Shown here: piece by piece, positions 35,640-57,035 of the stretch | How the letters are laid out: each line of letters opens with the position of its first letter | Numbering within the stretch: position 1 is the first letter of the stretch | Assembly (NCBI RefSeq): GCF_028641065.1 | Contig: NC_073408.1 | Span: 7,130,001-7,194,000, forward strand | Length of the DNA: 64,000 bases | Reading direction: 5' to 3' | DNA from: Leucoraja erinacea | Lineage: Eukaryota | Notes under the pieces: generated by a model | What the model was told of the DNA's origin: nothing | Seen by the model: the letters and a program-made list of their open reading frames with translations, nothing else | Databases searched by the model: none | Program-made: the position numbers and the translations under genes

Positions 35640-38600
35640 TTAATCGACCTCCTCAATTGTTGGGCCAGATGACGCACCTGCACCAGGAGGAGCACCACCA
35701 GCACCAGGAAAGCCTCCTGGTGGCCCACCAGCTCCCTGGTACAACTTTGTGATTATTGGATTGCAGATCTTCTCCAGCTCTTTCTGTTGATGTTCATATT
35801 CATCCTTTTCAGCAGTCTGGAAGGAACAAAAAAAAAGTTATTCATATTGCACTAAACAATGCGCACTTCAAGGAAAAGGACAAAAACGCTCAGACATCCA
35901 AGGAAGATTGCTATCACAACCAGCACAGGGTTCCAGTGGAAACTACGAATGGTTAGTGGTTTTTACTTCATCATTGCGAATGAATTAAAATTAACTAGCT
36001 TGAACTGCTGGAAATTTTACCTGGTTCTTATCCAGCCAGCTGATGACTTCATTGCATTTATCCAAGATCTTCTGTTTGTCATCGTCTCCAACTTTGCCCT
36101 TCAGCTTTTCATCCTCAATTGTAGCCTTCATGTTGAAAGCATAGGATTCCAGTGCATTCTTGGATGTTACTTTTTCACGCTGCTGATCATCCTCAGACTT
36201 GTACTTCTCAGCTTCTTGAACCATGCGTTCAATGTCTTCCTTGCTCAAGCGACCTATAAATAAAAATATATATATAGTATAGCTTCCCACTGACCAAGCA
36301 GCAAACATCTTGTTAGCTTCAATTGCTCAGACATCCAAGGAAGGTAATTGGCCAACATCCATCTCTCGATTTCTGGTGGAAACTACGAATGACTTTGGAA
36401 TCCTTCATCATGGCAAAGTTAAAGGCTACCAGATACCAAAAGCTCCTTACCTTTGTCATTTGTGATGGTGATCTTGTTTTCTTTTCCAGTGCTCTTGTCC
36501 ACTGCAGACACATTCAGGATACCATTGGCATCAATATCAAAAGTCACCTCAATTTGAGGCACACCCCGGGGAGCAGGTGGAATTCCAGTTAGCTCAAACT
36601 TGCCCAGCAAGTTGTTATCTTTTGTCATGGCTCTCTCACCCTCATACACCTACAAAAATATTAATTATTATAAGAAAATGGTAGAAACAAGAGTATGCAA
36701 TATATTGGTGATTAAGAACTTTCAGCAAATGCTGGCCAACTAATTTAACAATACTGAAAAGGAAGACATTGAAAATTGGGATTTACCTGAATCAGCACAC
36801 CAGGCTGGTTATCAGAATAGGTAGTGAAGGTCTGCGTTTGTTTTGTTGGAATGGTGGTGTTACGTTTAATTAACGTCGTCATGACACCACCAGCCGTCTC
36901 AATGCCCAGGGACAAAGGAGTAACATCCAACAACAGCAGATCCTGTACAGCCTCAGACTTGTCACCAGCTAAGATAGCTGCCTGGACAGCTAAGGACACA
37001 AAAATATTAGATTAGTCACGGAAAATAATCAAGATATTAGAATGTATTGTCAAATCACATTTTGTATAACATTACCTGCACCATATGCGACCGCCTCATC
37101 AGGATTGATACTCTTATTCAATTCCTTGCCATTGAAGAAATCTTGCAACAACTTCTGGATTTTGGGAATGCGGGTGGATCCACCAACCAATACAATATCA
37201 TGGATTTGAGCCTTGTCCATCTTAGCATCCCTCAAGGATTTCTCTACAGGGTCAAGTGTGCCACGGAAGAGGTCAGCATTGAGCTCTTCAAATCGCGCCC
37301 TAGTGATTGAGGTATAAAAATCAACACCCTCATACAGAGAGTCAATTTCAATGCTTGCTTGTGTACTGGATGACAACGTACGCTTTGCACGTTCACAGGC
37401 AGTGCGGAGACGGCGAACAGCTCTCTTGTTATCAGTAATGTCTTTCTTGTATTTTCTTTTGAATTCAGCAATAAAATGGTTGACCATACGACTATCAAAG
37501 TCTTCACCACCAAGATGGGTATCACCAGCTGTAGATTTGACTTCAAAAATTCCATCTTCAATGGTCAAGATGGAGACATCAAAAGTACCACCACCAAGGT
37601 CAAAAATCAGTACATTTCTTTCAGACCCAACCTATAGAGGAAAGGTAACAACCAAAGGTTAATACCCAGACATACAATAAAATAAACCTGGGGGGGGGGG
37701 GGGGGGGGGGGGGGGGGGGGGGAACAAAGTTGTGGCAGATGGAATACAGCATAGTTGTGGTCATCTGTAGTAATAATAACAGGATTAAATAAATCCAGAT
37801 TTTCTAAATGGGGAGAGGATTCAGAAATTGGATTGGGGGGGGGTGCAGGATTACCAAAAGGTTGATTTACGAGTTGAATCAGTATAAAGGAAGACAAATA
37901 CAATGTCGGTATTTGTTTTGAGGGGATTAGAAAATAAAAATAGGGATGAATTGCTGAGGCCACATTTGAATTATTACAAGCGGTTTGGGGCCAAAATCTG
38001 ATGGAAGTGCAGGCATTGGAGAGGGTCCAGAGGCTTACGAGAATGTTTGGTTTAATGTATGATGACCACTGATTGATGTTATATCATTTGAGCATTATGC
38101 TTAAGAAAGGAAGTTATTTTTCCACTGTTGGCACACGACACCCTTGACCACTGTTCCAGGCTTCTCTTCAGCCAACTTGTAATTAAATAAGAATTCTCAA
38201 TGTACTAATGTTTACAAATGGATACAACCAGATGCCATTTGCACTACGTACCTTCTTATCCAAGCCATAAGCAATTGCAGCTGCAGTTGGTTCATTGATA
38301 ATACGCAGCACATTAAGGCCAGAAATGGTACCAGCATCTTTTGTTGCTTGCCGTTGAGAATCGTTGAAGTATGCCGGCACTGTTATCACTGCATTTGAGA
38401 TGGTCTAAACAAAAAGATTACTTTATATAACATAACATCTTAACAAGATGCACATTTGACTTCAGAAATTTGGTGTAGCACATTTACAATAAACAGTTGT
38501 AACTGTACTGCAAACAATACCTTTCCAAGGTAGGCCTCTGCAATCTCTTTCATTTTAGTCAGCACCATGGATGATACTTCCTCAGGGTAAAAAGTTTTCT

Positions 38601-54800: not shown

Positions 54801-57035
54801 ATCTTGTGCAGACCAATTGGGATGGAAGTTACCAATCAGTTTACTTAGTGCATTGACTAATATTTAGACATGATATATGCATTTTATTGCAAAAAATCTT
54901 TAAGACTAGTTTGTTGTTTAATCGTTTAAAATTAAAATCACTTGCAAACATGAATGTTCAGCATCAAATGGCAAAGCAAATCCTTATTTTAGCACAAAGT
55001 TAAAGGTTACCTACTTTTCCAAGATAGGCTTCTGCAATTTCTTTCATTTTTGTGAGCACCATTGAAGAGATTTCTTCAGGATAAAAAGATTTAGTTTCAC
55101 CTTTGTAGTCAACCTGAACTTTGGGACGACCACCATCATTTACTACATTGAAAGGCCAGTGCTTCATGTCAGCTTGAACAACAGTATCTTCAAATCTACG
55201 TCCAATCAGGCGTTTGGCATCTACAAAATTCACAGGATGATGAATATTGAGACTTATAGAAAACATTTATCTGCCACAAAATGGTTCTAGACTTATGTTG
55301 CTCCACATCAGCATTTTCCAAGCTGATCAGGACAGGTAGACACAAAATGCTGGTGTAACTCAGTGGGTCAGACAGCATCGCTGGAGAAAATTATAGGTGG
55401 CTTTTCAGGTCAAAATACTTCTTCGGACCAGGACAGAAATCTACACCAACAAATCACTCAACTCAGGGTAACATAACCGCAAACAAAATGCTCACACAAG
55501 CAATAGCAAATTACTTCACCTCTGCAGCGTGATACAAATTACTCTGCAAGTGAAATGCCAATTTGATTAGCAGTTCTTTGCATCATACAAGTTTATCCAG
55601 TTGCGCCTTTACCGCCACAACAGTTGATGCCATCTCCCTGGCCCTCCATTAATTCCTGGAACACCTGAATAAGAAGGACACCTACGTCAGACCTCTATTC
55701 ATAGATGACAGCTCTGCTTTCAATACCATTATCCCAACGAAGCTTATCTCCGAACTCGTGGAACTTGAGTCAGCACTCTCCTCGGCAACTGGATCCTTGA
55801 CTTCCCGATTCCCCGAACAGACCACAATCAGCGAGGATAGGTGACAAATCATCCTCAACGATCCCCTGCAACGGTGCCACGCAAGGAAGCTTTCTCTGCC
55901 CCCTACTATGACCGTGCATCAAACACCAATCAAACTCAATTTACAAGTTCGCAAACGACACCACCGTCATGGGTTTGATATTAAGTAATGAGGAGACAGA
56001 CTACAGGAAGGAGATTGAGAAACTCGTAACCTGGTGTCAAGACAACAACCTCTCCCTCAGTGTCAGTAAAACAAAGGAGATTGCGATTGACTTCTGGAAG
56101 GGAAGCAGTACACATATCCATTGATGGCGCCGAAGTAGAAATAGTCGAAACCTTCAAGTTCTTACGAATAAATATCACCAGCAATTTGTTCTGGACCAGC
56201 CACAATGAACTATGGCCAGGAAACTACAACTACTGCTTAGAAGGCTTAGGGGGTTTGGCACATTCCCAACAACCCTCACTAACTTTCTTGCGTTGTAAAA
56301 AGCATTTTATCGGGTTACATCACAGCATGGTTTGGGAACAGCTCCATCCAAGACTGCAATAAATTGCAGAGTTGTGGAAGAAGCTTAGACCATCATGCAA
56401 ACCAACCAAACTTCCATTAACCATGTTGCCTCGGCCCCAGTCACTGCCTCTTCTCCCCTCTCCCATCAGGCAAGAAGTATAGAGGTTTGAAAACGCATAC
56501 CTCCAGATTTAGGGACACTTTCTTCCCATCTGCTATCAGGCAACTGAACTGTCCTCTCACCAGCTGGAGTGCTCCAGACCTCCCATTATCTCATTGGAGA
56601 CCTTTGAACTATCTTTAATCAGCTTTATCTTGCTCTAACTTGTATCATTTATATTTGTGGATGGCATGATTGCAATGTGTAGTCTTTTTTCTTTGACTGG
56701 ATAGCATACAATAAAGATTATTCATTGTACCTCGGTCCACGTGGCAATAATAAACTAAACTTTAAAAGGTGCAGTATAATACCACAACATACTGCAGTTT
56801 AGAACCTTCATTTACATTGCAATAACTTACCAAAGACAGTGTTGGTTGGGTTCATGGCCACCTGATTTTTCGCTGCATCACCAATGAGCCTTTCTGTATC
56901 AGTGAAGGCAACATAGCTCGGAGTAGTGCGGTTGCCTTGGTCATTGGCAATAATTTCAACTTTGCCATGCTGGAAGACACCTACGCATGAGTAGGTTGTC
57001 CCAAGATCAATTCCAACTGCTGGTCCTTTGGACAT
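48862..57035 (-). CDS. HSPA8: Heat shock cognate 71 kDa protein (hsc70), tandem copy B, 644 aa
   Basis: Coding exons 57035-56831 (205), 55220-55015 (206), 54609-54457 (153), 53437-52882 (556), 51275-51073 (203), 50573-50375 (199), 50159-49927 (233), 49041-48862 (180). Starts [12 protein letters not shown] and ends [32 protein letters not shown]. PolyA AATAAA at 48755-48750. Confidence 0.95.
49172..49470 (+). mobile_element. CR1 LINE 3' end in intron 8 of hsc70 copy B
   Basis: [38 protein letters not shown] followed by the 3' UTR. Confidence 0.85.
51455..52812 (+). mobile_element. Non-autonomous Helitron in intron 5 of hsc70 copy B
   Basis: 5' A|TCTATATTACTAAAAG; 3' ACCCACTGGGT hairpin followed by CCCACTTAGTCTAG|T; inserted between A and T. 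Internal ~260-bp direct repeat (51466-51725 vs 52059-52335) and minisatellites. Confidence 0.75.
51839..51992 (+). repeat. 30-bp minisatellite inside the Helitron
   Basis: About 5 copies of TTTGGAAATGCTAAAGCTGTGTTGCCTTT(G/A)G. Confidence 0.9.
53657..53957 (-). mobile_element. HE1/V-SINE copy in intron 4 of hsc70 copy B
   Basis: Same family. Confidence 0.8.
55575..56760 (+). mobile_element. Decayed LINE of Rex1/Babar-like type in intron 2 of hsc70 copy B
   Basis: Frameshifted RT remnants [53 protein letters not shown] tail. Confidence 0.7.

Follow-up and report, generated by a model that had tools for sequence, protein, structure and literature searches.

The 64-kb window analysed here (64,000 nucleotides of Leucoraja erinacea contig NC_073408.1, forward-strand positions 7,130,001 to 7,194,000) carries two full-length hsc70-type genes on its minus strand, named A (643 aa) and B (644 aa). 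Their comparison showed an exon-by-exon mosaic, in which exons 5 and 7 are only about 4% diverged and five other exons 12–19%. We consider it likely (probability roughly 0.8) that ectopic gene conversion made exons 5 and 7 alike, long after the genes had duplicated. The duplication itself is probably older than the separation of sharks and rays. Three things were observed directly: the mosaic, the coincidence of its edges with the splice sites, and the occurrence of both copy types in sharks. From them we infer the mechanism. All coordinates are given in Table 1.

Both copies are intact, as the original prediction had stated. The frames are open, each gene has 8 coding exons, the intron positions match and every intron is of the GT-AG type. 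Exons 2–8 are equal in length between A and B, and the lengths of exons 4–8 recur in a teleost-like hsc70 locus (L001, below). Exon 5 of both copies matched the Pfam HSP70 family (E 3e-79), and the best PDB matches of B exon 5 were Hsc70 structures, with residues 190–373 in register. We take HSC70/HSPA8 genes to be those with introns, 8 coding exons and the C-terminal GPTIEEVD. Both genes have the GPTIEEVD terminus and 8 coding exons separated by introns, and their proteins are 94% identical.

The nucleotide differences between A and B were 24/556 in exon 5 and 7/199 in exon 7, versus 25/205 in exon 2, 39/206 in exon 3, 25/153 in exon 4, 37/203 in exon 6 and 41/233 in exon 8. The hand counts of the original prediction (exons 3, 5, 6, 7 and 8, and an identical run of 155 nt) proved exact. 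The silent-site tests were restricted to codons that encode an identical residue in both copies, and exon 9 was excluded from them because of indels. Synonymous codons differed in 25 of 243 cases in exons 5 and 7, versus 125 of 298 in exons 2–4, 6 and 8 (p 4e-17). Heterogeneity across the seven exons was strong (chi2 = 70.9, p 2.6e-13), the five diverged exons were mutually homogeneous (p 0.52), and exons 5 and 7 were equal in silent divergence (p 1.0). The pooled synonymous divergence (dS) was 0.165 for exons 5 and 7 (0.17 and 0.15, respectively) and 1.25 for the others. The contrast therefore persists in silent sites alone and dS is not uniform across exons, both as predicted. The longest identical runs were 155 nt in exon 5 and 85 nt in exon 7, and a run as long as the first appeared in 2 of 100,000 permutations. 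No identical run inside the diverged exons was significant taken singly.

The claim that all these exons are similarly conserved as protein was true for part of them. Amino-acid differences were few in exons 5 (4/185), 6 (2/68) and 7 (1/66), and more frequent in exons 3 (12/69) and 8 (7/78). Exon 6, conserved as protein yet diverged at silent sites, is the clean control.

Exons 5 and 7 are the most conserved as protein, and purifying selection on their nucleotides since the duplication, through RNA structure, splicing signals or codon choice, might likewise have kept them similar. A scan of metagenome contigs with a degenerate exon 5 motif yielded two outgroup loci, both teleost-like hsc70 genes and neither of them elasmobranch; in one of them, L001, exon 2 and the beginning of exon 3 are missing. 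In the five other pairs among A, B and the two outgroups, 44–53% of synonymous codons differed in exons 5 and 7 versus 39–57% elsewhere, and the contrast was significant in none of these pairs (p 0.08–0.93). Silent sites of exons 5 and 7 are thus saturated against and between the teleost-like genes, as in the other exons; they are free to change, which leaves the likeness of A and B to exchange or artefact. At exon 5 third positions, A and B share 44 of 110 states that differ from both outgroups. With these two outgroups, silent-site constraint is rejected as the cause. A constraint restricted to elasmobranchs could still be imagined, and we rate the whole explanation as extremely improbable.

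The blastn alignment of A against B showed that similarity runs only 2–5 nt into the introns flanking exons 5 and 7. The remaining intronic matches were poly-G/C runs and short ones (≤45 nt), in agreement with the earlier statement that the introns have no evident similarity. Gene conversion requires long, highly similar sequence and stops once substitutions or insertions upset pairing (PMC3924837). We propose that the introns lost all homology after the duplication, and that only exons could then pair with the paralogue 14–16 kb away during break repair. Each exon would have become a separate conversion target, the introns being unalignable. Exons with long, nearly uninterrupted homology would have kept being copied, namely the 556-nt exon 5 and exon 7, whose one amino-acid difference lies at its very edge. 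Exons 3 and 8, crowded with copy-specific residues, and exon 6, with internal ones, would have crossed the divergence limit and drifted to near saturation. The direction of conversion gave no clear donor by GC/AT bias or by outgroup polarisation.

A cDNA-mediated conversion, with a spliced transcript of either gene as donor, would also account for the restriction to exons, and hsc70 is typically highly expressed. However, all 7 introns between coding exons are retained in both genes, and the diverged exon 6 sits between the homogenised exons 5 and 7. The divergence of the introns accounts for the edges by itself, and we give the cDNA route hardly any credence.

Homogenisation within exon 5 is patchy. 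An island at codons 224–247 holds 7 silent differences and a 50-codon stretch holds none (within-exon p 0.027–0.044). This suggests more than one event, short of proof of recurrence. Under the conversion model, tracts shorter than exon 5 would have left islands around old copy-specific residues. Silent differences between A and B cluster near amino-acid differences within exons (p 0.0009; exons 5 and 7, p 0.002; other exons, p 0.023). No such clustering was found in five control pairs (p 0.06–0.43), which are saturated and have lower power. Around residues 235, 243 and 291 alone it was borderline (p 0.056), and with all four exon 5 differences it reached p 0.018, both being post hoc. Such clustering also arises from any patchy conversion without selection. 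Its presence in the diverged exons as well as in exons 5 and 7 hints at earlier conversion of exons 2 and 4, in which case the confinement to exons 5 and 7 is perhaps not strict. (The clustering meant here is that of A and B.) Conversion within exon sequence, as originally predicted, is upheld by the splice-site edges and the outgroups; its limit to two exons may be looser than predicted. Exon 4 (38252–38404 in A; 54457–54609 in B) is itself uneven, with 15 differences and all three amino-acid differences in its first 42 nt and 10 differences in the other 111 nt, possibly a trace of older conversion.

Proteins of other elasmobranchs were used to place the duplication. They comprised a full-length catshark protein of type A (P0228), a sawfish protein of type B without exon 4 (P0130) and a whale shark fragment covering residues 362–643 (P0355). 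A fourth protein (P0127) was dropped as an inducible-type or garbled model. No single other elasmobranch species supplied both copies, and the DNA-level comparison of A and B comes from one species. A was 98.1% identical to the catshark protein, and B was 98.5% identical to the sawfish protein and 96.8% to the whale shark fragment, which is of type B. At 26 diagnostic sites A agrees with catshark and B with sawfish. A tree of 28 sequences (26 chosen among the retrieved proteins; residues 69–612) placed A with catshark and B with sawfish in an elasmobranch clade with support of 100, and B with sawfish also at 100. The duplication probably took place before the shark-ray split, because type A occurs in one shark and type B in another; the predicted old duplication is thereby borne out. 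An origin of A and B in the ancestor of all jawed vertebrates found no support, as bony-fish and tetrapod proteins split the 26 sites about evenly. The grouping of A and B with other elasmobranch proteins also counters it, although early whole-gene conversion could mask such an origin.

The protein sites were then compared in A, B, catshark A and sawfish B. Exons 5 and 7 contain 4 sites with the paralogue pattern, 1 shared by both skate copies (M326) and 1 swapped (residue 191), versus 22, 0 and 0 in the other exons. Methionine 326 lies inside the 155-nt run in both A and B, where catshark A has isoleucine and sawfish B has leucine. We regard it as support for a later exchange, short of proof. 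The adjective recurrent in the original prediction thus draws on the heterogeneity within exon 5 and on this single lineage-specific shared residue, which together support it weakly. Four old copy-specific residues were also kept in these exons. Catshark A likewise carries S235 and V291, T243 recurs in sawfish B, and F443 is common to gene B and the type B proteins of sawfish and whale shark.

The whale shark and zebra shark differ by a dS of 0.061–0.111 over approximately 50 Myr (PMC13100897), and the shark-skate split is dated to approximately 286 Myr (PMC10115646). With this borrowed shark rate, a dS of 0.165 corresponds to 74–135 Myr, and the predicted dS of shark-skate orthologues is 0.35–0.63, which is above 0.165. 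We infer that exons 5 and 7 were converted approximately 75–135 Myr ago on average, after the split. The 155-nt run has approximately 32 synonymous sites and a dS upper bound of approximately 0.09, and is probably younger than approximately 40–75 Myr.

A single conversion in the elasmobranch stem, before the shark-ray split, with all later differences (including the four copy-specific residues) accumulated at a slow clock and no exchange since, would explain why S235 and V291 (A, catshark) and F443 (B, whale shark) are old and intact. It would also agree with the paralogue grouping of the exon 5 and 7 proteins and with the same silent divergence of the two exons. Yet it requires a shark-batoid dS below 0.17, where 0.35–0.63 is expected, and later exchange is indicated both by the shared M326 and by the 155-nt run (within-exon p 0.027). 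We consider this scenario improbable.

Assembly or polishing cross-talk could make two copies look alike, and short reads mapped to the wrong copy could replace a few bases in a short identical run of a duplicated exon. On the other side, 31 interspersed differences persist in the 755 nt of exons 5 and 7, 25 of them silent, and A and B each retain the residues seen in their respective orthologues from other species. With their own locus present, reads at a divergence of about 18% would not map to the wrong copy. Practically all exonic words of A occur in RNA-type runs: seven of eight rows guessed to be RNA runs (5 studies) hold 0.51–0.58 of the words sampled from the A region, a sixth of this kind is also within range, and the exonic share of these words is 0.50. 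One run with a share of 0.27 (X20) and the rows with shares close to zero were left out of this comparison. These shares, for A only and with the run type guessed, fit A exons that are real and expressed. At most, an artefact could account for a handful of bases in the 155-nt run, those of M326 in B among them, and we judge it very improbable as the cause of the mosaic.

Several observations weigh against the conversion reading. The silent-site comparison covers the DNA of one elasmobranch, and the defining pattern, silent sites grouping by species, lies outside it. The proteins of exons 5 and 7 group by paralogue, by 4 sites to 1 (plus 1 swapped). Residue 326 is labile (leucine in 147 and methionine in 112 of 265 retrieved proteins covering the site). 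In the diverged exon 8, B shares S527 with A where sawfish and whale shark B have alanine, so parallel change does occur. The third-position GC content (GC3), which conversion commonly though not always raises, shows no rise in exons 5 and 7: it is 0.39/0.42 in exon 5 and 0.47/0.48 in exon 7, within the range of the other exons. Finally, the carpet-shark rate gives an impossible age of 560–1020 Myr for the diverged exons. The local clock is probably faster or composition-biased, and a faster local rate would make the conversion younger than dated. As a separate observation, the third positions of B exons 3, 4 and 8 are shifted towards AT (GC3 0.28, 0.14 and 0.38 versus 0.51, 0.35 and 0.54 in A), and the GC3 of B exons 2, 5, 6 and 7 matches that of A.

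The kept residues allow a further, tentative reading, which we think possible and on balance doubtful. Elasmobranchs may possess two functionally distinct Hsc70s whose differences have been defended by selection against recurrent conversion for approximately 290 Myr. Conversion would sweep exons 5 and 7 lineage by lineage, and S235/N235, A243/T243, V291/I291 and Y443/F443 would be small divergence islands marking co-chaperone-specificity residues. We take residues 235, 243 and 291 to lie in the nucleotide-exchange-factor-binding subdomain IIB. Four of the six differences between catshark A and sawfish B in exons 5 and 7 survive in the skate, versus ≤25% of the old silent differences (p 0.035; p 0.10 if residues 235 and 243 are counted as one because of linkage). 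Three accounts of the four residues can be given: protection by selection, conversion tracts that happened to pass them by, or a homogenisation more ancient than dated here.

A probable second tandem hsc70 pair was seen at the protein level in the bichir Polypterus senegalus (P0283 and P0284, consecutive accessions with contigs of equal length). Its amino-acid differences were 0/185, 0/68 and 1/66 in exons 5–7 versus 5/69, 4/78 and 5/56 in exons 3, 8 and 9. Both proteins have A412, and one has F443, as in copy B. This pair may be an independent repeat.

Related systems are known. The mammalian pairs BMP8A/B, DDX19A/B and TUBG1/2 show long-term mosaic conversion, with two copies <250 kb apart and >100 Myr old, some segments homogenised and others diverged, and lower dN/dS in the converted parts (PMC2720389). 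The exon mosaic is therefore less unusual than the original prediction suggested in its comparison with the concerted evolution of intronless hsp70 clusters. In contrast to the skate pair, the mammalian pairs were selected on the condition that one or more introns had stayed similar, and the evidence for them spans many species; the hsc70 pair has no alignable intron, its tracts end at splice sites, and its DNA comes from one species. The mammalian HSPA1A/HSPA1B are likewise tandem Hsp70 genes under gene conversion and purifying selection, but they are intronless, inducible and conserved along the entire coding region (PMC5865164), whereas the present genes bear introns, encode proteins of 94% identity and are homogenised in 2 of 7 compared exons. 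The fugu and zebrafish protocadherin clusters share regional coding homogenisation, a discrete boundary and the silent-site argument. They are many-copy arrays with tracts within one large exon, approximately 99% identity and raised GC3 (PMC1852091), and the skate has two copies, 96% identity and no GC3 rise. The primate red/green opsins, under a divergence-peak model, also show divergence islands around old copy-specific residues in a converted region (PMC3924837). Opsin introns, however, have been homogenised and it is the key exon that diverges; no hsc70 intron can be aligned, and the islands are found within a converted exon. The process is known; particular here are the strict exon edges, the lack of any alignable intron and a pair approximately 290 Myr old or older.

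Martin and Burg reportedly described shark Hsp70 paralogues in 2002, which may bear on novelty. An open-access search, with most subscription journals outside it, found no literature on this elasmobranch hsc70 pair. The excerpts of PMC8423806 and PMC9221867 do not mention sharks or tandem hsc70.

Table 1. Features of the hsc70 pair in the 64-kb window (window positions; B counterparts and codons are given under remarks where available).
Feature	Position	Strand	Remarks
Gene A, hsc70/HSPA8-type CDS	35640–39046	-	643 aa; compact introns, 86–620 nt
Coding exons of A	38842–39046, 38521–38726, 38252–38404, 37076–37631, 36787–36989, 36451–36649, 36021–36253, 35640–35816	-	
Gene B, hsc70/HSPA8-type CDS	48862–57035	-	644 aa; longer introns, 215–1610 nt
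Coding exons of B	56831–57035, 55015–55220, 54457–54609, 52882–53437, 51073–51275, 50375–50573, 49927–50159, 48862–49041	-	
Exon 5 of A, homogenised	37076–37631	-	codons 189–373; 24/556 differences, dS 0.17
Exon 5 of B, homogenised	52882–53437	-	
Exon 7 of A, homogenised	36451–36649	-	codons 442–507; 7/199 differences, dS 0.15; 85-nt identical run 36483–36567
Exon 7 of B, homogenised	50375–50573	-	identical run 50407–50491
155-nt identical run, A side	37111–37265	-	codon 326 at 37218–37220, Met in both copies
155-nt identical run, B side	52917–53071	-	codon 326 at 53024–53026
Diverged island in exon 5 of A	37455–37526	-	codons 224–247; residues 235 and 243 copy-specific, 7 silent differences; B counterpart 53261–53332
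U14/SNORD14 snoRNA, A intron 7	36323–36416	-	68.6 bits, exceeds gathering score
Second U14/SNORD14 copy, A intron 8	35886–35979	-	57.6 bits, E 5e-10, under gathering score 64
Three-unit heat-shock-element-like motif, CpG-rich region upstream of A	40962–40974	.	a likely splice donor of a non-coding exon 1 lies just downstream
Three-unit heat-shock-element-like motif, CpG-rich region upstream of B	59021–59033	.	

Two U14/SNORD14 copies were found in introns of A, and none was found in gene B. HSPA8 is a host gene of intronic U14. The teleost-like L001 has one U14, in the intron after exon 6 (1481–1569 of that locus). The host intron thus shifts between lineages, and within the skate pair the duplicates divide the snoRNA duty, which falls to A. 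The heat-shock-element-like motif had 3 matches in the window versus 0.87 expected. The third match, also perfect, lies between A and B (45549–45561), away from both promoters.

An apparent multi-exon gene lies downstream of A on the minus strand (approximately 7000–30600), with a CpG-rich start near 30300–30700 and acidic low-complexity exons. A piece of 20 aa at 25608–25667 weakly matched the gene downstream of the L001 hsc70 (E 0.027). Vertebrate HSC70/HSPA8 is characterised by synteny with CLMP/CRTAM; a Pfam search of five ORF pieces of neighbouring genes in the window gave no match. A weak tRNA-like match (38 bits) at 61987–62058 on the plus strand is probably a decayed tRNA or the head of a short interspersed element (SINE).

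The pair reveals no new mechanism, and it offers a tidy natural test of the point at which old duplicates cease to convert each other. Since no intron can be aligned, every exon acts as a separate island of homology, and the length and identity thresholds could be read for each exon in turn across sharks and rays. In elasmobranchs, phylogenies, qPCR primers and quantification from short reads would be led astray by hsc70 exons 5 and 7. Should selection maintain the islands at residues 235, 243, 291 and 443, these would name the positions responsible for the non-redundancy of two near-identical housekeeping chaperones.

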